A stretch of 64,000 bases of DNA from a virus (taxonomy: Duplodnaviria > Heunggongvirae > Uroviricota > Caudoviricetes), in the IMG/VR virus record IMGVR_UViG_2909739949_000002, positions 18,529-82,528 of that record; one strand, written 5' to 3'. Positions 9,136-56,046 of this stretch are shown in pieces. Numbering within the stretch: the stretch's first letter is position 1; each line of letters starts with the position of its first letter. The notes under the pieces were generated by a model that worked only from the letters and a program-made list of their open reading frames with translations, did not search any database and was not told the origin of the DNA. The translations under genes were made by a program, and so were the position numbers.

Positions 9136-9167
9136 TTTAACCAATTAATTTAACTGGAGGAATTACT

Positions 9168-9428: not shown

Positions 9429-9429
9429 T

Positions 9430-9573: not shown

Positions 9574-9735
9574 GGGTTCCATGAGAATCGTTGAAGTATT
9601 AACTAGTGTAGTGGTAGTTGGAACTTTAGGTAGCGCGATTATAGGTCTAAGCTTAGTGAATGCTAAGTATGACTTAAAACCTAGTCCAGTAACCACTCTC
9701 TTCAACAAAGGGGAAGTAGTTATCCCCTATCAATA
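9574..9735 (+). CDS. small membrane protein (53 aa)
   Basis: GGAGAGGG SD; hydrophobic core. Confidence 0.35.
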
Positions 9736-9748
9736 GTTTAGTAGTAGT

Positions 9749-9768
9749 GGCGGCATTCTAGCCGCCTA
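9749..9768 (+). terminator. GGCGGC-N6-GCCGCC hairpin (family A)
   Basis: GGCGGCATTCTAGCCGCC after ORF. Confidence 0.45.
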
Positions 9769-9775
9769 ATTAATT

Positions 9776-9991
9776 ATGGAAGCTTGGGAAAGAGAATTTA
9801 ATAAGGTTATGGAATCCTGTAAATCAGGAGAGAAGAAAGCTTCATACCATTTTAGCAGTAATGAATACCACGAAGGAGGGCATGAGAAGTTAGTGAGAGC
9901 CTTACTGGATGAATTCCTCAGTAAGGTTCATATATATTCGCCTGTTAGATTAGGCGATGGAAGTGGTTACGAAGGTGACATTTACTTTTAG
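9776..9991 (+). CDS. hypothetical protein, paralog family A
   Basis: SYHFSSNEYH motif shared with 7932/8360. Confidence 0.4.
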   Translation: MEAWEREFNKVMESCKSGEKKASYHFSSNEYHEGGHEKLVRALLDEFLSKVHIYSPVRLGDGSGYEGDIYF

Positions 9992-10000
9992 GAGGTAGAT

Positions 10001-10156
10001 ATGGATATTTCAATCAGAAGCGCACTATTACATGTAATCTTAATATGCCTAGTGGGGATACTAGGTATTCAAGGAATCTATAGCCTATTTGTAGTAGCTA
10101 CTACAGACTATAGCCGCGTTGAATATAAAGGTTACGGGGCGGGTCGTAATTGGTAG
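10001..10156 (+). CDS. small membrane protein (51 aa)
   Basis: AGGAGG SD; TM helix. Confidence 0.35.
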   Translation: MDISIRSALLHVILICLVGILGIQGIYSLFVVATTDYSRVEYKGYGAGRNW

Positions 10157-10210
10157 GTATACCTACCCATCAATCAACAATTGGTAAAAATATCTCCAGG
10201 AGAGAGTCAG

Positions 10211-10483
10211 ATGAGAAAGGTATTAGTGGTTGGGTTAGTAGTTGGTTTAGTAATTGGTAGTAATGTTCCTGTTAGTGCTAAAGAGGCGGCACCTAAATAT
10301 TGCAGTATGAAGGTACTAGGTAAGTGTCTGCAATGGAAGTCCTATAGATGGATTACTAAAAGTACCTATAAAACTGATGATGCATTAGAATGTGCATCAG
10401 GAAATGATAAGTTCCTTGGTGGTGGTCGTTATGTTGGCGGCTCTTGTATTGCTGGTTTGAAGAAAGGCTATTGGGGTAGATGA
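10211..10483 (+). CDS. secreted Cys-containing small protein
   Basis: GGAGAGAG SD; signal peptide MRKVLVVGLVVGLVIGSNVPVSA. Confidence 0.5.
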   Translation: MRKVLVVGLVVGLVIGSNVPVSAKEAAPKYCSMKVLGKCLQWKSYRWITKSTYKTDDALECASGNDKFLGGGRYVGGSCIAGLKKGYWGR

Positions 10484-10582
10484 GATATAGAAGGGGCTGG
10501 TAAATAGTCTAGATAGGTATAGTATGTTTCTATTGATTCAAAAGGAAATGTACTATACTTAACTAGATTAGGTTAATGGTGA

Positions 10583-10605
10583 TAGGCGGCGATACTAGCC
10601 GCCTA
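10583..10605 (+). terminator. GGCGGC-GATACTA-GCCGCC hairpin (family A)
   Basis: perfect 6-8 bp GC stem, 7-nt loop. Confidence 0.45.
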
Positions 10606-10642
10606 GTTAGGTTAAGTAGATTAGTTAGTGGAGGATGAGGAT

Positions 10643-10945
10643 ATGGCTTATTTCTTAAAGAAGACAAATAACAAGTTAACTACACGTAATATTAGTTATA
10701 TTCTGGTACCAGATTCGTTAAAGGATATTGAAGCTGTAGTAGAGTTCCTTGACCCGCACAATGTTTGTGATTTTGAAATGTGCGGGGATGAAGTGCTGAA
10801 GGAAGTGGGTAGCGAGAATGGTATTGTTAAGGCCCAACTAGATATCCTCTCTGCGGAAGGAGTAGAAAAGATTAAGGATATTGTAGCGAGGCGGCAAGAA
10901 GAAGAGATCCCCCTTCTACCTAAGACTGATATGGGAACCTGGTGA
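10643..10945 (+). CDS. hypothetical protein
   Basis: GGAGGATGAGG SD before ATG; track start at 10628 is GTG. Confidence 0.45.
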   Translation: MAYFLKKTNNKLTTRNISYILVPDSLKDIEAVVEFLDPHNVCDFEMCGDEVLKEVGSENGIVKAQLDILSAEGVEKIKDIVARRQEEEIPLLPKTDMGTW

Positions 10946-10950
10946 TAGTT

Positions 10951-11012
10951 AAATAGATACATTCTTCTATTAGAGATAGTATTACCTCATTAGAAGAATG
11001 TATCTATTTAAA
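10951..11012. repeat. 20-bp-stem hairpin AAATAGATACATTCTTCTAA...TTAGAAGAATGTATCTATTT (family B)
   Basis: perfect inverted repeat directly after stop codon. Confidence 0.55.
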
Positions 11013-11054
11013 TAGTATTATTAACAGTTCTATTTAAAGTTATTGGAGGATGAG

Positions 11055-11930
11055 ATGGTTACTGTTAAATTAGATGAGAGTTACGGTTTACCCATAGGTG
11101 CTAATTATGTAGATAGCTTATCTTTAATCTACGTATTAGATGGGGAGGTACATATTGTTTCTCCTGATAGAATCAATAATAGAGTTATTAAATTTCCTAG
11201 AAGTGCGGTACCTAATCTAAAAGAGAGAATAAGTGAGGCTACTCAAAGTGATGATAGTAACCTAGCACTAAAACTAGGAGAGGAGTTAGTTGAAGCTTTA
11301 ATAGGCGAAGAGAAAGCTTGTGAGTTAGCTGGTAGATTGATTAGCCTTCTAGAAGAACAGAATAGATTTCTGTTAAATGTTGAGTTTGAATCAACAGATG
11401 ATATTATTACCAAGATTAATAAGCTTAGAAATGCTAATCCCTCATTAGGTCTAAAGGAAGCTAGAGACTTAGCAGAGAATGGGGTATCTGCCTTAAAGGT
11501 ATATCTATTACCTGAATCATTTCCATATCCTAGTGAATATGGAGAAGGGCGGCTTGTTTGGGTTAATGGGTATGGTCTGGTGCCCCTAGAAATATGGCAC
11601 CAACAAAAACATATCCCCTACTCAGTAGAGGTTATATTGGATACTACTCCTACTCACTTTAATCTAAGTGACTATGGTATTCTAAACGCTTGGAATGAGA
11701 AGGTAGAATATACCTTTAGATTAAAGGAAGGGGTAGATAAACCAACCACCTTTACTGTACTAGAAGAAGGTGAGACCCCAACTGGTGAAATAGTATCTTC
11801 TTTAGTAGAAGCTTCTTCTATTGAAGAAGCTATTAAAGTATGGGAAGTGTATCAGAAAGGGCTTGATAAAGCTAATAGCTTATGGAGTGAACGGTTAGGA
11901 GAACTAGCTGAGAACTTCAAAGTTAAGTAA
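11055..11930 (+). CDS. hypothetical protein
   Basis: GGAGGATGAG SD; track start 11043 is TTG. Confidence 0.5.
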   Translation: MVTVKLDESYGLPIGANYVDSLSLIYVLDGEVHIVSPDRINNRVIKFPRSAVPNLKERISEATQSDDSNLALKLGEELVEALIGEEKACELAGRLISLLEEQNRFLLNVEFESTDDIITKINKLRNANPSLGLKEARDLAENGVSALKVYLLPESFPYPSEYGEGRLVWVNGYGLVPLEIWHQQKHIPYSVEVILDTTPTHFNLSDYGILNAWNEKVEYTFRLKEGVDKPTTFTVLEEGETPTGEIVSSLVEASSIEEAIKVWEVYQKGLDKANSLWSERLGELAENFKVK

Positions 11931-11940
11931 TTGGTTAATT

Positions 11941-11998
11941 ACTAGGTAGATATTATGTCTGTATTATCTTCATTAGAAAGATGTAATATCTATCTAGT
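11941..11998. repeat. long hairpin ACTAGGTAGATATTA...TAATATCTATCTAGT (family B)
   Basis: 15-bp stem, homolog of element at 9430. Confidence 0.5.
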
Positions 11999-12013
11999 AT
12001 TAGTTAAATAGAA

Positions 12014-12036
12014 TAGGCGGATATAAAGCCGCCTTC
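12014..12036 (+). terminator. GGCGG-ATATAAA-GCCGCC hairpin (family A)
   Basis: GC stem, AT loop. Confidence 0.4.
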
Positions 12037-12113
12037 ATTAGGAATGATTACTAGTTAAATATAGTATTCTTCCTATTGGATTTACAGTTACACATTAGTA
12101 AGGAGTTAGTGAG

Positions 12114-12506
12114 ATGAGTATTAATATCTATAACGGCACCCAACATACAATTAACATATTTTCTAAGGAAGATACTATAGCAGTACAAGGAGGGCGCAAG
12201 TTAATTCTTAAAGAAGAAGCAGTACCTATTAAAATAATACTAGCTGGTACTAACTTAAATGCTCAAACTGGTAATCTACCAGCCCCCTCATTAGATACTG
12301 ATATTCCCCTCTATGGTGGGGTCACTTTTACAAGTCATGACCCCTTACCTGAAGGATATGATATCTATATCGTATCTAATCTCTTTAGAAGTGCAGTAAA
12401 AGAATTAGGCGGGGATACTAGCCGCCTCGCTACTGTCTTCGGCACTGTCTATGCTAGTGAAGAAGATATGCGTCCATGTGGCTGTCTAGGTCTCTCAGTA
12501 GGTTAG
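12114..12506 (+). CDS. hypothetical protein
   Basis: AAGGAG SD; contains a family-A hairpin (GGCGGGGATACTAGCCGCC at 12408-12427) inside the ORF. Confidence 0.45.
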   Translation: MSINIYNGTQHTINIFSKEDTIAVQGGRKLILKEEAVPIKIILAGTNLNAQTGNLPAPSLDTDIPLYGGVTFTSHDPLPEGYDIYIVSNLFRSAVKELGGDTSRLATVFGTVYASEEDMRPCGCLGLSVG

Positions 12507-12644
12507 CTTATTCTCATTAGATAATAGTTATTAATTAAATAGACCCCTAACTAGACTAGTTAATAGAATAGAAAGGGGTCTATTTAATTAATCTATTAAA
12601 GTATAGAACTTCTTCTAATGAATCTAATTTAAGGAGACATTTAA

Positions 12645-12869
12645 TTGGCTAAGATAAAAGACCCTAATAGATGGGGATGGTTAACTACTATGTTAGGTTA
12701 TATAGTAGTTTGGGGTGGCGCATTTAGTATTGTAGGAGGGATAGTATTCTTCTTATGGAACAATATCCTTATTAAGACTGGACTAATGATAGTTCCCCTC
12801 AATCCAGTAGAAGCTTTCCTATTAGGAACATTAATAGTTTGCCTCCATCAATTATGGATGCATAGATAA
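12645..12869 (+). CDS. small membrane protein
   Basis: TTG start with AAGGAGA SD; two TM helices. Confidence 0.4.
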   Translation: MAKIKDPNRWGWLTTMLGYIVVWGGAFSIVGGIVFFLWNNILIKTGLMIVPLNPVEAFLLGTLIVCLHQLWMHR

Positions 12870-13020
12870 AACCTACCTGATGAGTCTCCTGACTAGAGAC
12901 GAAACTATCTAGTAACTTACTAGATAGTAGTAGGAAGTCATTCTTCCTATGGTTTGCATATTTCTTATATCCCTTAGTAGAAATACTAGGGGGTATTTCT
13001 TTTAATTTAATGGAGGGGAT

Positions 13021-13305
13021 ATGAAAGTAGTTTGGGAATATATTAAAGTACTATCTAAGTTTGGTCTATTAGGATTAGGTATATTAGCTATTATCTATTT
13101 AATATCATTGGGACTACCTAATGATGATAACTACCTAGAGGCTTTAGATAAAGCTGGTTATTCTAATGCTTCGTTAGTAGAAGGTTTTACAACCTGTGCT
13201 TATGGTGAATGGGGGAAGAATTTTACTGCTGTTGTTAATGAAAAACAGATAGAAGGTTCTATTTGTAAAGGTAGTGGCTTCAAAGGGTATACAGTAAGAT
13301 TCTAA
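13021..13305 (+). CDS. hypothetical protein with N-terminal TM/signal
   Basis: GGAGGGG SD. Confidence 0.5.
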   Translation: MKVVWEYIKVLSKFGLLGLGILAIIYLISLGLPNDDNYLEALDKAGYSNASLVEGFTTCAYGEWGKNFTAVVNEKQIEGSICKGSGFKGYTVRF

Positions 13306-13320
13306 AAGTAAATATGACAA

Positions 13321-13352
13321 TACTACCTATTAAGTAAATCTAATAGGTAGTA
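13321..13352. repeat. 12-bp perfect hairpin TACTACCTATTA-AGTAAAT-CTAATAGGTAGTA (family B)
   Basis: directly after stop of 13021 gene. Confidence 0.55.
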
Positions 13353-13797
13353 CACAACAATATCTCTAAAGAAATCAATAGAGATGGGTGAAGAGAGTAT
13401 TTAAAACAATATTTATAAGATACTCCTACTACGAGTAGAAGTTATAAAACAATAAAATATAATTTTATATTTATTCAACGATAAATATAAATGAAATGTT
13501 TATTAATGTTAGCTTTCTCGTCAGTCTACACCCCAGACCACTCATCTCCCGATCCCATTAACTCATCTATATGGTGTTTAGAAGGTTTATTTAATAATCT
13601 TATCTCTCTACTAGTTGAGGTCTTGCTCATTTCTCCAGGACTATTAATGTAGTAGATTATGGGCTCTAGGCCGAATATACACGCCTCATGGCTCACTAAC
13701 TTAGTTTGAGATGGATTATTTAATTAAGCTTTCTATATACCCTATATAACTATAGGGAAGGTTGAAGAAAGTGGGCATTTATTTAATAAGGAGGAAT

Positions 13798-13917
13798 ATG
13801 ATTTTATTCACAAGAGTAGCCATAGTAACAATCCTAGTTATAACTGTGGTTACCTACGGAGGTAAAGTAATCCCTAATACTAATAACTGTACACCTTCTC
13901 AAGAGGTTAGTAAGTAA
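13798..13917 (+). CDS. small membrane protein (39 aa), not in ORF track
   Basis: AAGGAGGAAT SD; MILFTRVAIVTILVITVVTYGG. Confidence 0.35.
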   Translation: MILFTRVAIVTILVITVVTYGGKVIPNTNNCTPSQEVSK

Positions 13918-14186
13918 TGACTACTATTGATAGGGTAGAAGTTAAGGTAGTTAATCTAAGAGCCTTTCTAGTAGAGAAAGTTCTTTCTATTAGGGAGATA
14001 GGTAATATCTCTAAAGAAGTATCGAAAAAAGGTTCTAGAGTAATGACTACTAAAAGTAGTAATGGGATTACTGTATTTACTTTAGGTAAGTGTAGTAATG
14101 TAGAGATTGCGTCTAGATGTGCCGTCGAATATCTTAATAAGGAGAATAATAATGAGTCACTTCCAACCAGTTCAAACAGATATTAA
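13917..14186 (+). CDS. hypothetical protein
   Basis: GAGG SD; overlaps next gene by 35 nt. Confidence 0.4.
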   Translation: MTTIDRVEVKVVNLRAFLVEKVLSIREIGNISKEVSKKGSRVMTTKSSNGITVFTLGKCSNVEIASRCAVEYLNKENNNESLPTSSNRY

Positions 14187-14535
14187 AGTGTCAGATAAAA
14201 GATTACTGATTCAAGCAATCAGTAACCAGCCTCAGATTAAAGAGGTGAAAGAGCGGCATCACATTAGAGGATATTACCAAAGTGTAGTATTGCCTGTGGA
14301 TATTGCGGGGCTTATGGAGGGTCAATATGATATCGGTTATATTGCTCAAGGAGATAAGTATATAATGACCGCCGATTTATCTATGGGTAACTGTGGAGGT
14401 AATGGAGAAGTTAGTAGTTCTTTGAGTGAACTAAATGCCGCCATTATTAAAGAGTATCTAAGACTATCTGCATTTGAGCTAGGTAGTAAAGGTAGAGCCC
14501 TAGAGGGTAGTCATATCTCAGTTAGTGTTAGTTAG
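14152..14535 (+). CDS. hypothetical protein, MSHF paralog (module copy 1)
   Basis: AAGGAG SD; N-terminus MSHFQPV similar to 16684 ORF MSHFHAV. Confidence 0.45.
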   Translation: MSHFQPVQTDIKVSDKRLLIQAISNQPQIKEVKERHHIRGYYQSVVLPVDIAGLMEGQYDIGYIAQGDKYIMTADLSMGNCGGNGEVSSSLSELNAAIIKEYLRLSAFELGSKGRALEGSHISVSVS

Positions 14536-14544
14536 ATTAATTAA

Positions 14545-14571
14545 TCCCTAGTAGGAATCTTCTATTAGGGA
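14545..14571. repeat. hairpin CCCTAGTAG-GAATCTT-CTATTAGGG (family B)
   Basis: 9-bp stem with one G.T. Confidence 0.45.
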
Positions 14572-14599
14572 TAAATTATTTATTTAAATGGAGGGGGAT

Positions 14600-15103
14600 A
14601 TGATTTGTAATGGATGTAAGTACTATAATCCTTCTGGTGAAGGTTACTGTGGTAAAGGTTATCTTCCAAAGGAGATGAAGAATGAGAAGGAGTGTCCTAG
14701 TAAAGAAGAAGGTAAGCCGCCCTCATTGACTATTCAGGCTGTCAATGTACGAGTTACTCAATGTAATCTCTATAGGAATGAAGGAAGACAATCTCAAATC
14801 CCCAAGGGGTGGAAAGAACTATATAGCATTATCCATTGGGAGATGAGTAAGAAGAAAATAGGGAGAGAGAGATTAGTAACTCTAATAGTAGAAACTGCTA
14901 GTTCTGCACCACTTATTAGTAAAGTAAGGGAAAGGTTTAATTTTCTAGACTCTAGGATAGAGGAAGAGATCTATCCACCCTTCAGAAGAATTACATTCAA
15001 GTGGAAGGAATCACCTACTGTTTCTTTTAGTAGGAGGAGAAAGAAGGTTAAGGGTTATCTACCTTATCCATTAGATAGTAAACCTATTCTAGTGAATAGA
15101 TAA
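14600..15103 (+). CDS. CxxC zinc-ribbon-like protein, paralog of 17079 ORF (module copy 1)
   Basis: GGAGGGGG SD; MICNGCKYYN and IPKGW motifs shared with 17079. Confidence 0.5.
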   Translation: MICNGCKYYNPSGEGYCGKGYLPKEMKNEKECPSKEEGKPPSLTIQAVNVRVTQCNLYRNEGRQSQIPKGWKELYSIIHWEMSKKKIGRERLVTLIVETASSAPLISKVRERFNFLDSRIEEEIYPPFRRITFKWKESPTVSFSRRRKKVKGYLPYPLDSKPILVNR

Positions 15104-15330
15104 ATCTTCTTTAGAGGGTAGTTACTAGTAATAGTATTACCTTCTAATGAGGAGGATTAACTCCTTAGTTATGCAGGTTCAAGTTACCTATTCCTGTTGA
15201 AACTAAAGCTCAGGTAGGAGTAGCTAACCTATCCTAAGTAGGTAGTTGGTAACTAGTCCTCTAATATAGGTTCCTCTAATATTTAGTCTAGTGGCTCTTC
15301 TATATAATCTATAGGGTATAGAACAAGTGC

Positions 15331-15354
15331 TAGGCGGGTATTAAAGCCGCCTAT
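15331..15354 (+). terminator. TAGGCGGG-TATTAAA-GCCGCCTA hairpin (family A)
   Basis: GC stem in 470-bp intergenic region. Confidence 0.4.
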
Positions 15355-15577
15355 ATGAACTCCTGTTAATAGCAAGGAGAGAGGTGAGTAGAGTATATAT
15401 TGCTATTGTCTGCCATGTGCAGAGTCGGCTTCTTAGTCTGTAAAGGCTAAGTTCAAAGAAATATATAAAAGAGAAGGGTATCGGCTATCAGCCCTTAATA
15501 TCCCTAGTAGATATACAGCTATTAGGGATTAAGATAGCCCCTATTGAATACCTTTGTTATGAACAAAGGAGTCTATT

Positions 15578-16252
15578 ATGCCTAGTTTATTTGGTCTTAA
15601 AGCCATGATTGATCTGAGATCAGAGATATCTCGATCAGTTATGGAACTAAGTTGGAGAGATAACAAAGAGCAGTTCATAGCTCTTACTTGTTATGCGGGG
15701 GATAAAAGATTTGTTGGCAGCAAGAATATATTCAGATCAATGTTCTGCTTCATAGCAGAAAGGGATCTAGAAGTAGCTAAAGCTATCATAAGAAAGATAC
15801 CTTACCTAATTAACTGGGGTGAGGTAGTTAAGTTAATTGATGAGATAGATAATGAAGAGTTAGCTATCTATGCAGCATTGTTCTATGCGACAGTTCTAAG
15901 AGTCAGGAAGGATAGGTTAGCTATTAAATGGGCCCCTAGAGAGGGTAAAAGATTTCAAAGGGCTAGAAAGCTAATTATGGCTCAATTAGGAATTACTAGA
16001 AATAGTGAGTATAGAAAGTTCTTAGCTGAGTTAAATAAGGAATATGATACTTCCCTAGAAACCCTTATGTGTGAAGGGAGATGGGAAGATATTAATTATA
16101 CTCTTATCAGTAAGAGAGCCTTTACCTTATATAAGAATGCGTTTATTAAACATGATGGTAGGAGGGTAAGACTCTATCATCATGAGGATAGTAATAGAAG
16201 GAACTTCTTACAAATGGAGATTCTAATAACTAAGGAGGGATACAAGATATGA
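15578..16252 (+). CDS. hypothetical protein
   Basis: AAGGAG SD. Confidence 0.5.
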   Translation: MPSLFGLKAMIDLRSEISRSVMELSWRDNKEQFIALTCYAGDKRFVGSKNIFRSMFCFIAERDLEVAKAIIRKIPYLINWGEVVKLIDEIDNEELAIYAALFYATVLRVRKDRLAIKWAPREGKRFQRARKLIMAQLGITRNSEYRKFLAELNKEYDTSLETLMCEGRWEDINYTLISKRAFTLYKNAFIKHDGRRVRLYHHEDSNRRNFLQMEILITKEGYKI

Positions 16253-16428
16253 AATCAGAAGATCAATATAATAGGGCACAAGAGAAACATCACCCTATTA
16301 GAAGCAATTTTGGAAATGTTTTAGCAGTAGGTATAGGTCTATTACTTATACTATTTCCCTTATGGGGATTACAAGAGGCTAATAGAAGAATGGAAAAACC
16401 TATTAAGATAGAGTTACCTAACAAGTAG
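16249..16428 (+). CDS. small membrane protein (59 aa), not in ORF track
   Basis: ATGA overlap with upstream stop; AAGGAGGGA SD; TM helix. Confidence 0.4.
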   Translation: MKSEDQYNRAQEKHHPIRSNFGNVLAVGIGLLLILFPLWGLQEANRRMEKPIKIELPNK

Positions 16429-16440
16429 AAATATAAAGTT

Positions 16441-16477
16441 TATCTATTAGGGTTTAGTACCTTTATCTAATAGATAT
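16441..16477. repeat. hairpin TATCTATTAG...CTAATAGATA (family B)
   Basis: 10-bp stem, 16-nt loop. Confidence 0.5.
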
Positions 16478-16564
16478 GTCAATCTCCTAGTGAATAAAGG
16501 TACTTTCTTGGTAGCTTTGCCTCATACTTCAACAAAGAATGGTAGCTTAGTTTAGTTAATAAAA

Positions 16565-16597
16565 CCTATTAGAGTTTTACGGGTGTTATCTAATAGA
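16565..16597. repeat. hairpin CTATTAGA...TCTAATAG (family B)
   Basis: 8-bp stem. Confidence 0.45.
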
Positions 16598-16683
16598 CAT
16601 AGGTGTAATTCCTATAGTTACCAAATGGTGTATGTGACCCAGCGATTACAGAACACCCCTTTCTTAAATATAGGTAGATTAAC

Positions 16684-17082
16684 ATGAGCCATTTCCATGC
16701 AGTTATTACTCAACTAAAGAATAAGGAAAGATTGATCAAGGCTTGTGAGAAGGTAGGGGCGGGCCCTGTTATCTCACAAGATGGGTTAATTAGAGGTTAC
16801 AATGGGCAGGTTAGACCTGCTGATATCGTTCTAAATATCGTAGATAGTATCTATGATATGGGATTCGATTGGGTTCCAGAGGAGGGAGTCTACCAAGTAG
16901 TTGGTGATTGGAGTGGGTTAGCAAATAGCTGTAGAGCATTATCTAATGGAGAGAGAGAAGGTAATTCTCTAGAGCAGATATTTAATCGTATCTGTCAGAT
17001 ATATGCCCAACTAGGAATAGAAGAAGCTACTGTAGGTGGCAAGGTTGGTAGTAGTGCTAATGTCTCTATTAATGTGGGATGA
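16684..17082 (+). CDS. hypothetical protein, MSHF paralog (module copy 2)
   Basis: paralog of 14152 ORF. Confidence 0.45.
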   Translation: MSHFHAVITQLKNKERLIKACEKVGAGPVISQDGLIRGYNGQVRPADIVLNIVDSIYDMGFDWVPEEGVYQVVGDWSGLANSCRALSNGEREGNSLEQIFNRICQIYAQLGIEEATVGGKVGSSANVSINVG

Positions 17083-17531
17083 GCATTTGTAATAAATGTA
17101 TCTATAATGCTGGTTACTTCTGTTCTTTAGGAATAAAGGAGAGAGGGGAGTTAAAGGAATGTTTGTTTAAAGATGAGAGACCAGTTAAGTTAATAGAGAA
17201 GCCTTATGGAAGTAGATATCTATTCATTAGGAAATATCCTAAAGAGCAGATACCTAAAGGCTTTCGGGATATTACTGTTCACTATGAAGTGAAGAGAACT
17301 AGGCTAAAAAGTAAATGGAGAAAGGTAGAGATTAACTGGGTAGTTAATTATGAAGATGATGGAAAGGGCTACTTTAAAGTTCTAGATTATCTTTCTATTA
17401 ATTACTTTAGATATAAGACTAGGAACTTTAAACATAGATGGAAAGTAGAACATATGAATAGGAGAAAATATTTAGAGATTAGATTCTCTGTTGAAATCCA
17501 TAAGTATGTTCCTAGTCTACCTGTAATCTAG
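17079..17531 (+). CDS. CxxC zinc-ribbon-like protein (module copy 2)
   Basis: ATGA overlap; MSICNKCIYN; paralog of 14600. Confidence 0.5.
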   Translation: MSICNKCIYNAGYFCSLGIKERGELKECLFKDERPVKLIEKPYGSRYLFIRKYPKEQIPKGFRDITVHYEVKRTRLKSKWRKVEINWVVNYEDDGKGYFKVLDYLSINYFRYKTRNFKHRWKVEHMNRRKYLEIRFSVEIHKYVPSLPVI

Positions 17532-18269
17532 GGCGGGCTTCATTAGACGTTCCCTAATGTATAACCTAGATAGGAGTATAAGAGCTGGCTTCTAGGTCTT
17601 CTCTAGTAACGATTCTTACCAGCGTCATGGTTAATCCTCAATCCAAATAAGAGTAATAATGAAGAATAAGACTAGCAATTGGAGGTGGATACCTATCCGC
17701 TCCTCTGACTCAATAAGAGGAAGTAAATATAAAGTAATGAGTCTATTCTCTATCGACCCATCTAGATAGAGAAGAACTAGATGGCAATTCCTATAAGGAG
17801 TATTCTTATATAATCTATTAGGAATGGGTAGATTATATAAGATAGGTAGTCGGTTTAAGGCCGCCTTCTATTCATTAATTATCCTATTAATATGGGCTAG
17901 CCTTTAGGGTGAATTAGGAGAAGTAAGTTCAACTCTTACTACTACCATTAATAATGATAGCTATATCCCAATAGAAGGATTTATTAACTATACTAGGACT
18001 CTTCCCTATTGATACCTAGTATTAGTAGCACTGTAATAGGCTTTTATAACTGGAAGTTAATGAGAAACTACCATACCATTACATGACTTCATCCTTTATA
18101 AGTAGTGGTCAAGTTCAAAGGGGTTGAGTTTTATAGGTTTTAGTGAGAAACCATCTTCTATCTAAGGTTGTTAATTAGTAGGATAGTCGGATAGGAATTA
18201 ACTGTGCCTTTATTAATACCTATTTAATAAAGGTGAGTAGAATCTAGGAAAGGTAACTATAAGTTACAT

Positions 18270-18347
18270 TCTTCTATTAGAGAAAGATAATTGAAGATGA
18301 GAAGGGAACTCATTAGAGATTAATGAATATCTAATAGAAGGATAATC
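18270..18347. repeat. long-range hairpin TTCTTCTATTAG...CTAATAGAAGGA (family B)
   Basis: 12-bp stem with nested CATTAGAG/CTAATAG. Confidence 0.45.
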
Positions 18348-18367
18348 TAATTAATTTAAGGAAGGTG

Positions 18368-18541
18368 ATGAAACTAATTAAGTTTGCCTTCTTTCCTCTA
18401 TTCCTAGTTATGTATCTAATATCTCCTAAGAGAAATATAAAGAAGGAGATAGAAAAAGAGGTATCTAGAAAGATAGAAGAAGGAGACCCACCCCCAGGTA
18501 TTATCTGGGAGTGGGAAATAGAAGATGGGGAAGATGAATAG
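18368..18541 (+). CDS. small membrane protein (57 aa), not in ORF track
   Basis: AAGGAAGGTG SD; TM N-terminus, acidic C-terminus. Confidence 0.4.
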   Translation: MKLIKFAFFPLFLVMYLISPKRNIKKEIEKEVSRKIEEGDPPPGIIWEWEIEDGEDE

Positions 18542-18602
18542 TAAATAGATAGTAGATTAGTTTAATATCAGGGTTAATATTAATTCCTTAAGGAAAGAAA
18601 CA

Positions 18603-18734
18603 ATGAGATATCTACTTTATATAGCTATTCCTCTAATAGTCTATTGGACTATTGGTAGTTCATTTACTAGTCTAGTTACTAGTAATACTAATTCCCTTAT
18701 AGAGAAAAGGGTGATGGTGAATATAGATGAGTAA
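18603..18734 (+). CDS. small membrane protein (43 aa)
   Basis: AAGGAAAG SD; TM helix. Confidence 0.35.
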   Translation: MRYLLYIAIPLIVYWTIGSSFTSLVTSNTNSLIEKRVMVNIDE

Positions 18735-18742
18735 GGAGAAGT

Positions 18743-19069
18743 ATGACTCAACAGAGAGTAGTAGTAGTTCCTAAACCTAAGAGTAGTGGTAGTAGAGAGG
18801 TTCCTTGGAAGCCTCTCATTTATTTTGGGGTGATATTTACATGCGGCAACTTATGGGTAGCTAATAGTAATATTAGTCTTCCTAGGGGACACGTAATGTA
18901 CCAACCTCTACAAATAAGTAGAGCCGTCTTTAGAGTTAAAGCTGGCAATAGACTAACTCACGGTGATTGTGCCCTAATTAAGTCTAGAGGTGAAAGAAGT
19001 AATGAATGTGATCTTCTCTTGCTAAGAGAAGAAAGAAGACGGAACCAACAGATGAGAGGAGATAAGTAG
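18743..19069 (+). CDS. hypothetical protein
   Basis: AAGGAGAAG SD. Confidence 0.5.
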   Translation: MTQQRVVVVPKPKSSGSREVPWKPLIYFGVIFTCGNLWVANSNISLPRGHVMYQPLQISRAVFRVKAGNRLTHGDCALIKSRGERSNECDLLLLREERRRNQQMRGDK

Positions 19070-19357
19070 ATGATTGAAGGTAAAGATATCGTTAAAGCTA
19101 TTACAGAACCTAGCCCTCAAGAAAAGAAACTACATCCCTATATCATTGGCATTCTAGGTATAGCTATTGCTGTTGTAGTAGTTAAGGGCCCTATAGATAA
19201 GAATGCAAAGAAGGTAGAACCTATGCCTGTATTATCTCAAGAATGCGTCACAGAAGTAATTCAACAGAAAAGTATTCCAATGAGTGATGAATGTAAGAAG
19301 CAGAATGAAGCTCTTACTAAATGGAATAGAACCTTAGGAGGTACTGTCAATGAATAA
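19070..19357 (+). CDS. hypothetical membrane protein
   Basis: coupled start; TM helix. Confidence 0.45.
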   Translation: MIEGKDIVKAITEPSPQEKKLHPYIIGILGIAIAVVVVKGPIDKNAKKVEPMPVLSQECVTEVIQQKSIPMSDECKKQNEALTKWNRTLGGTVNE

Positions 19358-19532
19358 ACTCACCCCCCAACAAATAGCTTACATAAAGAAAATACAAAGG
19401 AATAGAGACGGGGTTAATAGAGTATTCCTTACTATGTTCTTAATACTAGCTCTAGTAGGAGTATATAACTGGGTTAAATGGGGCACTCCAGTTCCTCAAC
19501 ATAGGATAGAGAATGGAAAGATTCTTAGATAA
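19350..19532 (+). CDS. small membrane protein
   Basis: overlapping start; TM helix. Confidence 0.4.
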   Translation: MNKLTPQQIAYIKKIQRNRDGVNRVFLTMFLILALVGVYNWVKWGTPVPQHRIENGKILR

Positions 19533-19746
19533 TATTCTTACCCACGTAGTAAATGGGATATTAACTATAGTGGGTCTATGGTTCCTATTAGGTATATATA
19601 ATCTCCATAAGAGAAGAACTATACCTAATAGTAAGAAGGTAGCTAATAAGATAGCCGCCTTATCACAAGATATTGAACTACCAGGAGATATAGAACATGG
19701 ATGCGACAGAATGGAAAGAGACTCTGATGCAGGAGATATTCTCTAG
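19513..19746 (+). CDS. small membrane protein
   Basis: TM helix. Confidence 0.4.
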   Translation: MERFLDNILTHVVNGILTIVGLWFLLGIYNLHKRRTIPNSKKVANKIAALSQDIELPGDIEHGCDRMERDSDAGDIL

Positions 19747-20038
19747 CGAATTATGGGAAGATATTGCTGCGGCTACTAGACTTCTAGTAAGAGTCCTATT
19801 AGCTGTAATACTAGTAGGGATATTAATTACATCTTTTGCTAAAGACGTATATCTGCAAGTGAAGGGAAAGTTAGATGAGACAACTAAGCGAGGAACAGTT
19901 CCTTCAACTACAGAAGGAGACGGAGGAAGCATATCAGCTAACTCAGCAGTCCAGTCAGAAGTATTGGAAGAAGAAGAAACAAGTACCGCTAACGAGGGTA
20001 GGGATATTAGATTCCCTATTGGGATTAATACTAGGTGA
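19697..20038 (+). CDS. hypothetical membrane protein
   Basis: GGAG SD; TM helix. Confidence 0.4.
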   Translation: MDATEWKETLMQEIFSSELWEDIAAATRLLVRVLLAVILVGILITSFAKDVYLQVKGKLDETTKRGTVPSTTEGDGGSISANSAVQSEVLEEEETSTANEGRDIRFPIGINTR

Positions 20039-20047
20039 TTAATAAGT

Positions 20048-20275
20048 ATGGAACCTGGAAAGATAGAGAAGGCTATAGATGAAGCTACTCTAAAGATGAA
20101 GGATGCCGGGTTCCATATTTGGGATGCCATAGATCATATAAATGAAGTCTCTAAAGAGATACTTAATAGAGATGATTTATCTATTGATGATATGGCTGGC
20201 ATTATTGAATATAAAGGTGAAGAAGTAGTAGTCCTTTATGAAGAATTAGAAGATTGGTCTAAAGGTTTACCTTAA
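20048..20275 (+). CDS. hypothetical protein
   Basis: AGGTGA SD. Confidence 0.45.
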   Translation: MEPGKIEKAIDEATLKMKDAGFHIWDAIDHINEVSKEILNRDDLSIDDMAGIIEYKGEEVVVLYEELEDWSKGLP

Positions 20276-20524
20276 CTTGCCTTAATCTAGTATCTAGATT
20301 AGAAGTGAGGGGTTGGCAACTCTCCTATTCACCTTCTAAGGTGAGCAGTATCCCCAACCACGCAACCCATGTATCTAATCTCTTAGTAATCTACGGTTAA
20401 TAGGTCGGGATTTAGTAGTTTAAGCAAGGGCACCATACTACATAATCCCGATTGATTTAATGTAGATTATATAAAAAGAGATTAGATACTTTTCTTAGTA
20501 ACTATAAACAAGGAGAAAGATAAC

Positions 20525-21187
20525 ATGTCTAACTATAAAAGCCGCCCTTTAAATGCTTCATTCAAGATTAACTTAATAAAGAATAATGAGAAGGATACTA
20601 GTACCTTTGGTATTGGTGCTGTGAAGATGAAGAATGCAGAAGGGCAAGAAGAAGATATATATACCATTACTGGTGAACTCTCTCAAGTTAATGAAGAGGT
20701 AGAAGTAAGAGGTGTAAATAGAATGAATATTGGCAGCAGCTTCTATGGACTAAGAGCAGTAGTACGTATGCCTAAGACTCTTAAGGAAAGAATAGAAAAG
20801 GAAGCTAGAGAGTGGTATCAGACCGCCAGAAATGATGGTGACTATAATCCATTAATCGGTATTGAGTTTAAGGTGCCATTTATTCCTAACCCTACTAAGA
20901 TGGAATCTATCAATCCTAGTGATAGTATGGCTAGTAAGAATGTTATCTTTCTTGTAGGAGAGGATAACTATGTAGGTATTACCTATGGTGATATTATTCG
21001 TACTGCTGAATCCCTTAAGGAGGAAACAGATAGAGCATTTGAATTAACTAAGAAAGCTAAGGATAATTATTGGGCTAATATCTGGCCTGTAAGAATGGCT
21101 AATAGAATTAGTCAGTTGGCTAATACTGATATTGGTGAATTAACTAGTGCCGCCCTAGGTAAGAAGAAGAAAGAGAAAACTAAATAG
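20525..21187 (+). CDS. hypothetical protein
   Basis: AAGGAG SD. Confidence 0.5.
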   Translation: MSNYKSRPLNASFKINLIKNNEKDTSTFGIGAVKMKNAEGQEEDIYTITGELSQVNEEVEVRGVNRMNIGSSFYGLRAVVRMPKTLKERIEKEAREWYQTARNDGDYNPLIGIEFKVPFIPNPTKMESINPSDSMASKNVIFLVGEDNYVGITYGDIIRTAESLKEETDRAFELTKKAKDNYWANIWPVRMANRISQLANTDIGELTSAALGKKKKEKTK

Positions 21188-36406: not shown

Positions 36407-37186
36407 ATGAAAGACGCATTGGGAGATAGAATGAAGGAATTCTATGAGAATGTTTATAGAATTCATTTAACTAGAAGAACTCCTGTAATTCTAAGACTAG
36501 ATGGTAAGTCCTTCCATACTTACTGTAAATCTCTGAAGGATAGGTTTAATAAAGGATTCATGAGATGTATGGATCTAACTGCTATTAGATTAATGGGGGA
36601 GATACAGGGAGCCCAGCTTGCTTTTGTGCAGAGTGATGAGATTAGTATTCTTCTACATGATTATAAGAAACTAACATCTGAAGCATGGATGAAGAATAAT
36701 ATTCAGAAGATGGTTAGTATTAGTGCAGCTATAGCTTCAGTAGAGTTTACTAAGAATAGTCCTATCATTTGGGGATTTAAAGAACTAGATGACGGCTCCT
36801 CTATACCTATAACCAAAGAAGCATACTTTGATAGTAGAGTATTTACTATCCCAGAAGCGGAAGTATGTAATTACTTTATCTGGAGACAGAATGATGCAAC
36901 TAGAAACTCTATTCTTTCTTTAGGTCAAAGTCTCTTTTCACACAAACAGTTACAAGGATTGAACTGTTCTATAATTCAAGATATATGTCATGATAAAGGA
37001 CATAACTGGAATGATTTACCTACTAGTCATAAGAGAGGTAGATGCATAGTTAAAAAGTACCACAACTTTGTATCAGAAGGTGGAGTAGAGACTATAAGAA
37101 GTAAATGGGTAGTAGACGAAGAAATACCTATCTTTACTCAAGATAGAAACTATATAAATAAGTATTTGGCGGTTGATAATAGTTAA
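36407..37186 (+). CDS. Thg1-like protein (tRNA-His guanylyltransferase family; 3'-5' nucleotidyltransferase)
   Basis: GGAG SD; VILRLDGKSFHTY, AFVQSDEISILL, FDSRVFTIP, YFIWRQNDATRNS match Thg1 motifs including the catalytic Asp positions. Confidence 0.8.
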   Translation: MKDALGDRMKEFYENVYRIHLTRRTPVILRLDGKSFHTYCKSLKDRFNKGFMRCMDLTAIRLMGEIQGAQLAFVQSDEISILLHDYKKLTSEAWMKNNIQKMVSISAAIASVEFTKNSPIIWGFKELDDGSSIPITKEAYFDSRVFTIPEAEVCNYFIWRQNDATRNSILSLGQSLFSHKQLQGLNCSIIQDICHDKGHNWNDLPTSHKRGRCIVKKYHNFVSEGGVETIRSKWVVDEEIPIFTQDRNYINKYLAVDNS

Positions 37187-47199: not shown

Positions 47200-47224
47200 T
47201 AGGCGGCATAACTAGCCGCCTAAT
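47200..47224 (+). terminator. TAGGCGGC-ATAACTA-GCCGCCTA hairpin (family A)
   Basis: 8-bp stem after stop. Confidence 0.5.
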
Positions 47225-47371: not shown

Positions 47372-48070
47372 ATGGATCGTCTAACTGACAATTATGTTCC
47401 AGGCAATGGAGATCTGGGGCATAGTAAAATCCTATATGGATTGCCGCCTATTCTTAAGAGTGACCCAGCATGTGAGATACAAGGGTCTATTGAAAGAGTA
47501 CGTAATTCAATAGAGAAATTATTAAGCACTAGTGAATTACTACAACCAGAATTAAATTACTTATTAGGATATCTAAACAGAAATATATTCTCTCTAGCTT
47601 CTTTCTGTTATATGAAAGGGGATAGTAGTAGACATCTAATGAGTACTGACATTATCTATTTCATGGATAAAGAGATAGAAAAATTAAAGAAAGAGTTAGG
47701 AAGTGTACCTGACTTTATTTATCAGACTCATGTGACATTAGCATATCTAGATGCTATTAGAATTGAGGTTAGGGCGTTAGAAAGAGATTATGTAGCTTGG
47801 TGGTATAGTAGTAAGATTAGTAGATTTCTAATGGAGAGAGAAGATTTAATTAAAGGAGTAAGAATATATGCTGCTATATTAAATAGATTAAGTGCTTATC
47901 TATTTGAAGCAACTAGAAAAGAAGCAGCTATTATGAGAGATAAAGGTATTCCTCTAGTAGAAAAGTATTGGCAGGCTTCTATGGAAGAATGGAATCCACC
48001 AGTAGAAGAAGATAGTAAAGTAGTTAGTATTAGTAAGTTAGTCTCGCCGCCAGAATTATTGATTGCTTAA
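47372..48070 (+). CDS. PduO-type ATP:cob(I)alamin adenosyltransferase-like protein
   Basis: GNGDLGHSKILYGLPPILKSDPACEIQGSIERV aligns to PduO N-terminal [31 protein letters not shown] pattern. Confidence 0.5.
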   Translation: MDRLTDNYVPGNGDLGHSKILYGLPPILKSDPACEIQGSIERVRNSIEKLLSTSELLQPELNYLLGYLNRNIFSLASFCYMKGDSSRHLMSTDIIYFMDKEIEKLKKELGSVPDFIYQTHVTLAYLDAIRIEVRALERDYVAWWYSSKISRFLMEREDLIKGVRIYAAILNRLSAYLFEATRKEAAIMRDKGIPLVEKYWQASMEEWNPPVEEDSKVVSISKLVSPPELLIA

Positions 48071-48156
48071 TTTAATTATTATATTTAATTACCTAATAAC
48101 CTAGTCTGTTTCTAGACTAGGTTTTAATTGTCAACCCTATTATTATTGTTAATTCT

Positions 48157-50370
48157 ATGTCTAAATTAGATCAGTACTTGGATCTATTACAGCCTCAGTA
48201 TCTTAGTAGAGAATTCATTAAGAGTTATGAGAATAAGAAGCCACCCTTTGGTCAATTAGGTGCAGTTATATATATCAGAACTTATAGTAGGTTTATTGAA
48301 GAGTTACGTAGAAGAGAGAGATGGATTGAGACCATCAGTAGAGTAATAGAATATTCTCTAAGCTTAGATACAGTAACACCTTTTGAAGAGAAGCAAGAAG
48401 AGGCTAAAGAACTATTCGAGATGATGTTCTATCTTAAGGGATTACCTTCAGGTAGATCTTTATGGACTGCTGGCTCTGCACAAAGTAGAAGAGATTCTAG
48501 TTCTAATTGGAACTGTACCTTTAGGGTAATGGATTCTCTATCATCTTTTAGTGAAATTTATTATTGGTTATTAATTGGGGCGGGCACTGGATTTTCAGTA
48601 GAAGAGAAATACATTACTAAACTACCTAAGTTCTATAACAATAAGCAAATAGACCATGAGGAATATAATTGTCTATATCCTTATGTGAAGTCAGATGATT
48701 TATCTATTATTAGTGCTGATAAAGAAATAAGACTAGGTAAAGAATATCTCTATCTAAACGACGAAGAGTTTAGAGATAAGTTATCTGGTTTAGGTAGTGT
48801 AGTTCATATAGATATTGGAGATTCTAAAGAAGCGTGGTGTTTAACTCTTAGAACTCTACTAACTATATTTACTATTGAGTCTATTAGAAGGATTACATTT
48901 AACTATGATTTAATTAGACCAGAAGGTACTAGAATTAGAACCTTTGGTGGTAGAAGTAGTGGGCCTCGTGCTTTAAAAGAACTTATAGATAATATATTAA
49001 AGATATTTAACAGGTTTACTGAAGGTAGTGAGTTACTAGAGTTTGTTCTAGATTCAGTAGGTGTATTAGATATATTGAATGCAGTAGGGTTAAATGTTAA
49101 GAGTGGAGGTACTAGAAGAACAGCAGAGATAGGTCTAGGTAGTAGATTAGATAAAGCTTTTATTACTGCTAAAGAGAATCTATGGTCTGATCCTAAGAAA
49201 GAAGAATGGAAAGTTATTAGGACTATGTCTAATAATTCTATTCTTTATTATGAGAATCCAGGAGTAGAAGAGATTAGAAGAAACCTAGACTATACCCAGA
49301 ATGGAGATCCTGGTGTTTGGATTATAGGTAATAGTTTAAAGCTGGCTGAGAGTCCTGTAGCTGGAACAAATCCATGTGCGGAAGCAGCACTAGATGATAA
49401 ACAGTCTTGTAACTTGACAACTCAAGTTGTAGTGAATCATGTGTATCATGATTGGCTAATAGATAGTTATCAGTATGACTACGAAGCTAGCGAGAGAACT
49501 ATAGAGTTAATTACTCGTATTGGTTGTAGACAAACTCTAGCTAATCAATGGCATCCTGAATGGGATAAGACTCAGAAAAGAGATAGATTATTAGGTGTAT
49601 CCATGACTGGGATTATGGATGCGGCTGATATATTAGGTTGGGGTCTTAAGGAGCTTGAGGAATTCTTCAAGTGGGCTAAGAAAGTATCTATTGAAGAAGC
49701 TAATAGATATCACGATTATCTAGGTATTAATAGAAGTACTAGAGTAACATTACTTAAACCAGAAGGAACCTTATCTCTATTACCTACAGTAAGTAGTGGT
49801 ATTCATAGAGCATATGCACCTTATTTCTATAGAAGAGTTAGATTTAGTAAGACTGACCCATTAACTAAAGTACTCCTAGATGTAGGAATGGTACCAGTTC
49901 CAGAGAATGGACAGGGTGATGATCTCTATGCAGAAGAATGTAATACTTGGATATTTACATTCCCTATGAAGACTAATGCTTCTATTAGAGCTATTGATGA
50001 AAGTGCGATCGCACAATTAGAGAGATATAAAGTAGCTCAGAAGTATTATGCTGATCGGGGACATAACATTTCTATTACAGTAACCATTGAACCTAGAGAA
50101 TATGATGAAGTAGCTCAATGGTTATATGATAATTGGGATGATGTAATTGGTATAGCTTTCCTCAGTAGATTTGATCCTAGAGAAGGGGGTCAAGCAGCTT
50201 ATCCTAACATGCCTAATGAACCTTGTACTGAAGAAGAATATTTAGAGCTTAAGAGTAAGACACCAGAGTTAGATGAGTTAGAGTTGTTAGATTTACTTAC
50301 CAAGTATGAGACTGATTATGAAGACTACGAGTTAGATAGTGATTGTCTACAAGGATGTCCAGTTAAATAA
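48157..50370 (+). CDS. nrdJ: ribonucleotide reductase, class II (adenosylcobalamin-dependent, monomeric NrdJ-like)
   Basis: 737 aa; active-site N-P-C-A-E with second Cys 11 residues downstream (SCN), matching the Cys408/Cys419 spacing of class II RNR; LGVSMTGIMD loop; C-terminal CLQGC pair. Confidence 0.7.
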   Translation: MSKLDQYLDLLQPQYLSREFIKSYENKKPPFGQLGAVIYIRTYSRFIEELRRRERWIETISRVIEYSLSLDTVTPFEEKQEEAKELFEMMFYLKGLPSGRSLWTAGSAQSRRDSSSNWNCTFRVMDSLSSFSEIYYWLLIGAGTGFSVEEKYITKLPKFYNNKQIDHEEYNCLYPYVKSDDLSIISADKEIRLGKEYLYLNDEEFRDKLSGLGSVVHIDIGDSKEAWCLTLRTLLTIFTIESIRRITFNYDLIRPEGTRIRTFGGRSSGPRALKELIDNILKIFNRFTEGSELLEFVLDSVGVLDILNAVGLNVKSGGTRRTAEIGLGSRLDKAFITAKENLWSDPKKEEWKVIRTMSNNSILYYENPGVEEIRRNLDYTQNGDPGVWIIGNSLKLAESPVAGTNPCAEAALDDKQSCNLTTQVVVNHVYHDWLIDSYQYDYEASERTIELITRIGCRQTLANQWHPEWDKTQKRDRLLGVSMTGIMDAADILGWGLKELEEFFKWAKKVSIEEANRYHDYLGINRSTRVTLLKPEGTLSLLPTVSSGIHRAYAPYFYRRVRFSKTDPLTKVLLDVGMVPVPENGQGDDLYAEECNTWIFTFPMKTNASIRAIDESAIAQLERYKVAQKYYADRGHNISITVTIEPREYDEVAQWLYDNWDDVIGIAFLSRFDPREGGQAAYPNMPNEPCTEEEYLELKSKTPELDELELLDLLTKYETDYEDYELDSDCLQGCPVK

Positions 50371-50377: not shown

Positions 50378-50402
50378 AAGGCGGCCTAACTAGCCGCCTT
50401 AC
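50378..50402 (+). terminator. AAGGCGGC-CTAACTA-GCCGCCTT hairpin (family A)
   Basis: after nrdJ stop, followed by ACTTATT. Confidence 0.5.
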
Positions 50403-55891: not shown

Positions 55892-55898
55892 ATTTAAT

Positions 55899-55970
55899 CC
55901 AGTCTTAGTTCATCGGTAGAATAGGCCTTTTGGGAAGGTCGGGTAACTGGTTCAATTCCAGTAGACTGGA
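55899..55970 (+). tRNA. tRNA-Pro (anticodon UGG)
   Basis: acceptor CCAGTCT/AGACTGG, D-stem GTTC/GAAT, anticodon stem GGCCT/AGGTC loop TTTGGGA, T-arm ACTGG-TTCAATT-CCAGT, discriminator A. Confidence 0.75.
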
Positions 55971-56046
55971 TTTAACTAACTAGTACTAAAGTGATGTAAT
56001 CATGTAGATTACTTCTCTTTAGCTTATAAGGGTTAGTTAGAATAGA

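Follow-up and report, generated by a model that had tools for sequence, protein, structure and literature searches.

A two-gene module for nucleotide supply, in which a class II ribonucleotide reductase (RNR) is paired with an adenosyltransferase (ATR) that would make its active cofactor, is very probably carried by a cyanophage-like element represented by the IMG/VR virus record IMGVR_UViG_2909739949_000002, as judged from sequence comparisons and a structural model. The stretch of DNA analysed, hereafter the window, comprises 64,000 nucleotides of this record (positions 18,529 to 82,528). Both genes lie on the same strand, the ATR gene first, and their open reading frames (ORFs) are separated by a spacer of 86 nt (Table 1).

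The downstream gene product is, on the basis of its profile and residue matches, a monomeric class II RNR of the adenosylcobalamin (AdoCbl)-dependent ribonucleoside-triphosphate reductase (RTPR) type, divergent enough to fall under the equivalog cutoff. The RTPR model TIGR02505 was matched by reductase residues 27-736 (profile 4-723 of 724; E=6.3e-90, 302.3 bits), compared with 55 bits for the dimeric NrdJ model and 14 bits for class I NrdA/E, the best score outside class II. The RTPR-specific N-terminal alpha domain PF17975 was matched over its full length (profile 1-101 of 101; E=4e-26, 91.9 bits vs a cutoff of 26.4), Pfam also recognized the RNR barrel PF02867, and phrog_367 (ribonucleotide reductase) was matched with E=1e-150. 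The RTPR of L. leichmannii (PDB 1L1L) was found by phmmer in three separate stretches (E=1.3e-47), pairing GTNPCAEAAL..SCNL of the window protein with GTNPCGEISL..PCNL, NCTF (containing C120) with NCWF, and DCLQG-CPVK with DCEGGACPIK. The key residues C120, N405, C407, E409, C418, C730 and C734 are thereby placed onto L. leichmannii C119, N406, C408, E410, C419, C731 and C736, and the significance of this alignment indicates that the N-x-C-x-E motif (N405-P-C407-A-E409) reflects homology and not chance. The initial annotation, made from the sequence alone, had pointed to this motif with a second cysteine at class II spacing and to a C-terminal cysteine pair; C418 does lie 11 residues past C407, the C-terminus reads ...DSDC730LQGC734PVK, and the profile comparison likewise bears out the class II assignment. 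The YY at 630-631, the sole such pair near the C-terminal barrel strand, aligned to YW of the L. leichmannii enzyme. No beta-subunit family, NrdB/F or NrdG was found in the Pfam inventory of 92 ORFs across the window, and the reductase gene is uninterrupted, without an intein.

The upstream gene is predicted to encode a divergent PduO-type ATR, in agreement with what had been proposed for it initially. Its residues 12-182 matched Cob_adeno_trans (PF01923; profile 5-169 of 171) with 46.3 bits vs a gathering cutoff of 24 (E=6.4e-12). In the PDB, a single-sequence phmmer search with the ATR yielded chance matches only, and a family profile was required; the profile A1, built from the window ATR and 13 homologues, matched T. 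acidophilum TA0546 (1NOG; E=4.7e-10) and LrPduO (3CI1; E=2e-4). An hhalign comparison with a canonical PduO alignment gave 99.1% probability (E=1.7e-18). The AlphaFold2 monomer model (predicted local distance difference test score, pLDDT, 79.5; predicted template-modelling score, pTM, 0.75) was compared with the PDB by Foldseek, and the top 50 matches consisted entirely of PduO-type ATRs, other members of the PduO family and proteins engineered from them (probability 1.0), including the L. reuteri, B. cereus, human, M. tuberculosis and B. thailandensis enzymes. Target-normalised TM-scores among these 50 were 0.39-0.83, with 0.65-0.82 for the natural ATRs, and the comparison with LrPduO and the B. 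cereus, human and M. tuberculosis ATRs gave 0.71-0.83. Of the two outcomes named initially as refuting the annotation, an RNR of class I or III and an upstream ORF devoid of the adenosyltransferase fold, neither was observed.

The putative active site was mapped by MAFFT and hhalign alignments to canonical PduO sequences. G13-D14-L-G16-H-S18 takes the place of the canonical TGDxGxT, K29 that of the conserved lysine, F115 that of the phenylalanine in FILPGG, R130, R134, E137 and R138 those of R-x3-R-R-x-E-R, N171-R172-L173-S174 that of NRLS(D) and W200 that of the C-terminal tryptophan; R182 completes the set of key residues. The active-site helix and the NRLS serine presumably correspond to human MMAB R186, R190, E193, R194 and S217, and F115 to LrPduO F112 and human F170, the human and L. 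reuteri residue numbers being our assumption. On these alignments, the window ATR keeps all mappable positions that contact ATP and the corrinoid. In human MMAB, ATP and AdoCbl are coordinated by R186, R190, E193 and R194, supported by S217 (PMC9262797), and the lower ligand is pushed aside by F112 of LrPduO, leaving cob(II)alamin four-coordinate (PMC6257451).

The strongest argument for a functional coupling of the two genes is their conserved linkage, which was traced by tblastn searches of the fetched loci and from gene tables of the encoding contigs after dereplication of lineages. In 10 dereplicated lineages, no more than about 1.1 kb separates an ATR of this clade from an RTPR gene; in nine of them the two are adjacent or one small ORF apart, and the ATRs concerned are 25-57% identical to the window protein. 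The ATR gene precedes the RNR gene in the window and in lineages L003/L018 (a JGI/IMG-VR contig, 190-220 kb), L020, L006 (136 kb), L007 (195 kb), L008/L023/L024 (with one ORF of 72 amino acids between) and L021/L022. The order is reversed in L025, where the ATR is 25% identical and a dUTPase and NblA are encoded nearby, in L027, where the ATR (26% identical) starts 39 nt after an RNR C-terminus reading ...CTVGGACPLR, and in the Nodularia phages (L001), with about 1 kb between the genes. The RNR genes of L003/L018, L020, L021/L022, L023/L024 and L001 have been repeatedly invaded by inteins or a LAGLIDADG endonuclease; some relatives have RTPR versions of 1059 and 1244 amino acids with intein and LAGLIDADG signatures, and in one the RTPR is split into ORFs of 496 and 361 amino acids with a free-standing ORF for a LAGLIDADG_2 endonuclease between them, at or beside the catalytic NPC motif (query residues 407/408). 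That the pairing outlasts order inversion, deep divergence and repeated invasion of the RNR gene argues for coupling of ATR and RTPR, as far as gene order and sequence can tell, and the conserved synteny lends support to the initial view of the pair as a coherent metabolic module.

The ATR belongs, as placed by these sequence searches, to a small subclade of PduO that is overlooked by current equivalog models. An exhaustive HMMER search with the A1 profile against 1.84 billion representative proteins returned 178 at E<=1e-3, 95 at E<=1e-10 and 30 at E<=1e-30, and canonical-looking PduO proteins (about 180-190 amino acids, with FILPGG and NRLSD) entered the list only from E of about 4e-6 and weaker. 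A further homologue search (alignment A3) added just three proteins. Among 108 clade representatives, K29 was conserved in 104, F115 in 107, R134 in 107, E137 in 105, N171 in 106, S174 in 104 and W200 in 105, and all of these are common to the 10 aligned canonical PduO sequences. The clade proteins are 40-50 residues longer and have conserved positions of their own, for example W143 and H88. Cys34 (47471-47473) and Cys79 (47606-47608) are invariant in the immediate subfamily (A1) and absent from canonical PduO, and a cysteine at alignment position 112 is kept in at least 90% of that subfamily, the window ATR having valine there. A clade-wide catalytic or metal site formed by these cysteines was considered and rejected, as Cys34, Cys79 and Cys112 are kept in only 61, 55 and 28 of the 108 representatives and are a subclade trait.

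Another of these ATRs, 52% identical to that of the window, is found in Calothrix anomala FACHB-343 contig57 (L019), where positions 4792-20645 are occupied by a small integrated prophage beside the host 6-phosphogluconate dehydrogenase gene. The prophage carries genes for an integrase, an ANT antirepressor-like protein, an SU10-type capsid and a tail sheath, as well as an OrfB_IS605 gene. No RNR lies near this ATR, which suggests that it can also serve a host-encoded B12 enzyme.

Several observations weigh against the assignment of the pair as a phage reductase and its cofactor-activating partner. The window reductase missed the TIGR02505 equivalog cutoff (340.05 bits) by 38 bits, a small shortfall of the kind common in divergent homologues from phages, and the B12-dependent RNR insertion domain PF21995, in a region that falls within the TIGR02505 match, scored 26.1 bits, 0.9 under its gathering cutoff of 27 (E=1e-5). 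The ATR scored 35.9 bits with TIGR00636 (PduO_Nterm), far under the equivalog cutoff of 108.45. It lacks the P-G-G after the phenylalanine, the second arginine of the RR pair (Ala135, at the place of human R191) and the aspartate of NRLSD, and these losses may have altered its oligomerisation or function; human R191 is a trimer-core residue (PMC9262797). The Pfam inventory of 92 window ORFs contained neither a cob(II)alamin reductase nor any further cobalamin gene, and no phage structural gene was identified in the window. In L015 the sole match resembling an RNR (partial, with 28% identity) is about 6.5 kb from the ATR, and in five lineages (L004/L009/L019, L005, L002, L016 and L030) the fetched flanks yielded no RNR; L002 is a partial Microcoleus phage genome and L030 a 3-kb contig. 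The ATR of such lineages may depend on a partner whose gene lies elsewhere, or may have another role.

The activity proposed for the module may be outlined by analogy with LrPduO and human MMAB. The ATR, presumably as a trimer, would bind MgATP via the GDLGHS motif, K29, R130, R134, E137 and R138, and N171 and S174, with host cob(II)amide held over F115 in a base-off, four-coordinate state. A host reductant would supply one electron to give Co(I), and the attack of Co(I) on C5' of ATP would yield adenosyl-cobamide, which in a cyanobacterial host is presumably adenosyl-pseudocobalamin. The reductase would take this 5'-deoxyadenosyl-cobamide, perhaps by direct hand-off, to form a thiyl radical at C407, would convert ribonucleoside to deoxyribonucleoside triphosphates via the C120/C418 pair, aided by N405 and E409, and would be re-reduced through its C-terminal C730/C734 tail. 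In this way the replicating phage would secure or regenerate the active cofactor that its own reductase needs.

A link of the module to pseudocobalamin is plausible. Cyanobacterial CobO belongs to the CobA-type family and not to the PduO type. The base-off corrinoid binding of PduO enzymes would be compatible with a pseudocobalamin substrate, and L. reuteri itself makes pseudo-B12. Cyanobacteria produce pseudocobalamin, their own adenosyltransferase is CobO, and cyanobacterial NrdJ is expected to use Ado-pseudocobalamin (bioRxiv 10.1101/2024.04.01.587587). Why a phage should bring its own ATR is a matter of speculation: demand may be raised, cofactor may be inactivated on the reductase and need regenerating, or it may be photolysed in illuminated cells and need replacing.

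A more specific form of the proposal, to which only a modest chance is given, would see in this divergent, largely cyanophage-borne PduO clade a viral system for cofactor activation and hand-off, devoted to phage RTPR: the ATR would dock on the reductase, pass adenosyl-pseudocobalamin straight to it and adenosylate anew any cofactor that is lost, as may happen through side reactions or photolysis in illuminated host cells. The extensions with W143 and H88, and Cys34 and Cys79 of the subfamily, would then serve as a partner or redox interface.

The PduO-like protein might instead be mainly a cofactor chaperone or repair factor that loads adenosyl-cobamide onto the RTPR or strips inactive cob(II)amide from it. 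A precedent exists in human MMAB, which makes AdoCbl and also releases it, sensitised by its client mutase (PMC9262797); the close adjacency to RTPR, repeatedly re-formed in both gene orders, fits a physical partnership, and the 40-50 extra residues with the clade-specific W143 and H88 could make a partner interface. Given that the ATP-binding and Co-C bond-forming residues are all kept, a loss of catalysis is not indicated, and a role mainly as chaperone is considered unlikely, although chaperoning and catalysis are not mutually exclusive.

Far less probable is a PF01923-fold protein unrelated to the reductase, with another ATP- or tetrapyrrole-binding role or one in host takeover, the adjacency being due to a shared early or middle gene neighbourhood. 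The five lineages without a nearby RNR, including the Calothrix prophage in which the ATR is beside the antirepressor-like gene, would agree with this, as would the score under the NCBIfam equivalog cutoff and the altered PGG, RR and NRLSD motifs. However, the RTPR linkage persists in the 10 dereplicated lineages despite order inversion and intein or homing endonuclease insertion, and the corrinoid-adenosylation residues are nearly invariant. Cyanobacterial hosts are also reported to encode NrdJ (bioRxiv 10.1101/2024.04.01.587587), so that an ATR without an RNR nearby could serve the host reductase.

Least probable of all is a reductase that is not B12-dependent but a misassigned class I-like alpha subunit, for which the 'Cyano SP' RNRs of cyanophages, originally taken for class II, offer a precedent (PMC6370689) and the TIGR02505 score under its cutoff and the PF21995 score just under its own an opening; it was rejected given the end-to-end match to L. 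leichmannii RTPR, an AdoCbl enzyme defined by biochemistry, with PF17975 and the C-terminal CxxxC tail, the class I score of only 14 bits, the lack of a beta-subunit family in the window inventory, the alignment of YY 630-631 to the YW of RTPR and not to the class I radical-transfer dyad, and the B12-activating enzyme as conserved neighbour.

Compared with known systems, the window reductase resembles that of L. leichmannii in being a single chain of nearly equal length (737 vs 739 amino acids) with the same N-terminal RNR_Alpha domain, catalytic set and C-terminal redox cysteine pair, the latter spaced CxxxC here and CxxxxC in L. leichmannii. It is strongly divergent from that enzyme, is encoded in a phage-like region and, unlike several close phage relatives, has no intein. 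The monomeric NrdJ of Anabaena PCC 7120 is of the same type as L. leichmannii RTPR, and this host reductase reportedly contains an intein. Canonical PduO proteins share with the window ATR the helical-bundle fold, GDxGxT/S, the lysine and phenylalanine, the R-x3-R-x2-E-R helix, NRLS and the C-terminal tryptophan, but have about 185 amino acids compared with 232.

The pairing of ATR and RNR is not new. Both a 'ribonucleotide reductase' and a 'cobalamin adenosyltransferase' are annotated in GenBank and UniProt for the Nodularia phages vB_NpeS-2AV2 and vB_NspS-kac65v151/kac68v161 (Ravarandavirus), whose hosts are heterocystous cyanobacteria, and the window represents a new, distant member of an uncharacterised module. 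The Nodularia phage RNR is of the RTPR type and 42% identical to that of the window, and the ATR is of the same clade and 28% identical. The two Nodularia genes lie on the same strand in the order RNR then ATR, the reverse of that in the window, with two small ORFs between them; the RNR contains an intein, unlike that of the window, and a transposase gene is found just upstream of the module in both the Nodularia phage (L001 2507-3691) and the window. A megablast of the 3-kb module against 50,697 phage records gave no match, and the window ATR matched only Nodularia and Microcoleus records in the phage collection. A canonical PduO query matched 15 records of that collection, most of them short (2-34 kb) and mostly unannotated Listeria, Enterococcus, Salmonella or faecal 'phage' entries; two were 254-kb contigs of Acinetobacter phage MD-2021a annotated as yvqK. 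Only three proteins in BFVD share the ATR fold (Nodularia phage, Mimivirus LCMiAC02 and virus NIOZ-UU159), and viral PduO-fold proteins are rare outside the Nodularia phages. Marine virioplankton phages have been found to encode a monomeric RTPR whose activity depends on host-derived B12 (ISME Commun 2023, PMC10547690); an adenosyltransferase is unmentioned in that study, whereas the window phage also carries a predicted cofactor-activating enzyme. No relevant open-access literature was found on the pairing of an adenosyltransferase with an RNR in phages or cyanophages.

With regard to the genomic context, the exact ATR protein was sited at 151.0 kb on JACJQF010000002.1 (359,493 bp) of the Calothrix sp. 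FACHB-1219 assembly, where it bears the NCBI name 'hypothetical protein H6G33_10110'. The + strand carries 105 of the 115 window ORFs, the GC content is about 0.29-0.41 and the GC skew is positive throughout. The majority of the ORFs were assigned to no family; those with matches include NblA, Thg1-like, MazG/NUDIX, LAGLIDADG and T5orf172 endonucleases, TROVE/Ro-like, spore-photoproduct-lyase-like radical SAM proteins and several PHROGs. This ORFan-rich one-strand gene array fills the window and runs on for at least 12.7 kb past its end, and relatives were found on IMG/VR viral contigs of 130-250 kb. A phage and cyanobacterial setting had been suspected at the outset, and NblA, the strand bias, the PHROG matches and the origin from a Calothrix sp. 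FACHB-1219 assembly agree in placing the module in a cyanophage-like context. That the element is a large cyanophage or a phage-derived element is well supported, and JACJQF010000002.1 may be a jumbo cyanophage genome assembled along with the Calothrix culture. Genes for a capsid, terminase or integrase were not seen in the examined part of this contig, and an ORF of 1144 amino acids at the window start, with no record and no phage match, gave no help in placing a phage boundary. The contig is listed from 8 samples.

The two genes are bracketed by two consecutive copies of a GC-rich hairpin, AGGCGGC-N7-GCCGCCT (Table 1), which suggests that they form a discrete transcription unit. Eight copies were counted in the window vs 0 expected by chance, all of them within about 65 nt downstream of the end of a + strand ORF, most at 6-12 nt, and several with T-rich tails. 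They are probably the intrinsic terminators or RNA-stabilising hairpins of the element, and could be used for mapping its transcription units. The spacer between the two genes holds another hairpin, which could be an attenuator or processing site; no Rfam family was found for it, the best match (OmrA-B, 23 bits vs a cutoff of 40) being at chance level. No cobalamin riboswitch was detected in the window, nor in the leader and spacer regions. Sigma-70-like promoters were not enriched in the window (10 found vs 18.4 expected), and none lay in the 150-nt ATR leader.

Table 1. Features of the module and of its surroundings, in window positions.
Feature	Position	Strand	Evidence or remark
Divergent PduO-type ATR (predicted), 232 amino acids	47372-48070	+	PF01923, AlphaFold2 fold, hhalign, family profile
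Monomeric class II (AdoCbl-dependent) RNR, RTPR/NrdJm type (predicted), 737 amino acids	48157-50370	+	TIGR02505, PF17975, phrog_367, 1L1L
GC-rich hairpin AGGCGGC-N7-GCCGCCT, module 5' boundary	47201-47221	+	Terminator scan, repeat count; likely a terminator or RNA-end hairpin of the unit upstream
Second copy of the GC-rich hairpin, module 3' boundary	50379-50399	+	Terminator scan; 9 nt past the RNR stop
All copies of the GC-rich hairpin (21 nt each), starts	10584, 28153, 38663, 40105, 43448, 47201, 50379, 54066		
Spacer hairpin, 11-bp stem, AACCTAGTCTG-TTTC-TAGACTAGGTT then TTTAATTG	48098-48123	+	Terminator-like scan, sequence
Thg1-like tRNA-His guanylyltransferase	36407-37186	+	phrog_4717, E=1e-80
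TnpB / IS605 OrfB-type protein, 415 amino acids	44434-45681	-	PF01385 and PF07282 (Cas12f1-like TNB)
NblA, phycobilisome degradation protein, 72 amino acids	54986-55204	+	PF04485, E=1.3e-25
tRNA-Pro(TGG)	55898-55971	+	About 460 nt upstream of the TROVE/Ro60-like gene
TROVE/Ro60-like RNA-binding protein, 535 amino acids	56432-58039	+	PF05731, phrog_850
Spore-photoproduct-lyase-like protein	60817-61755	+	PF20903

Some of the neighbouring genes have counterparts elsewhere. An NblA gene is likewise present in the distant relative L025, and the Thg1-like protein is about 49% identical to homologues of large Bacillus phages. The TnpB-type gene is 1.7 kb upstream of the ATR gene, at a local GC bump of 0.387. 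Another PHROG-850 match occurs elsewhere in the window, and no Y-RNA-like Rfam family was detected between the tRNA gene and the TROVE/Ro60-like gene. The spore-photoproduct-lyase-like protein possibly has a role in the repair of ultraviolet damage. An R2K-type ATP-grasp protein is encoded a few kb past the window end (L026 16062-16919).

What is added here to the existing annotations is a residue-level case for the catalytic competence of the ATR, the definition of a small divergent clade, the conserved linkage of that clade to RTPR, and a proposed function for a protein labelled 'hypothetical' by NCBI in its source genome. The module is a coherent one, and specialists would hardly find it surprising. 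Aquatic phages are reported to carry class II RNRs widely, and the need of these enzymes for B12 is thought to tie phage replication to the host cobamide supply (PMC10547690). Some cyanobacterial phages also carry an enzyme that should make the active adenosyl form, suggesting that cofactor activation, and not just the reductase, may limit infection. The pair would also be a compact two-protein system for asking whether cyanobacterial NrdJ-type reductases use adenosyl-pseudocobalamin.

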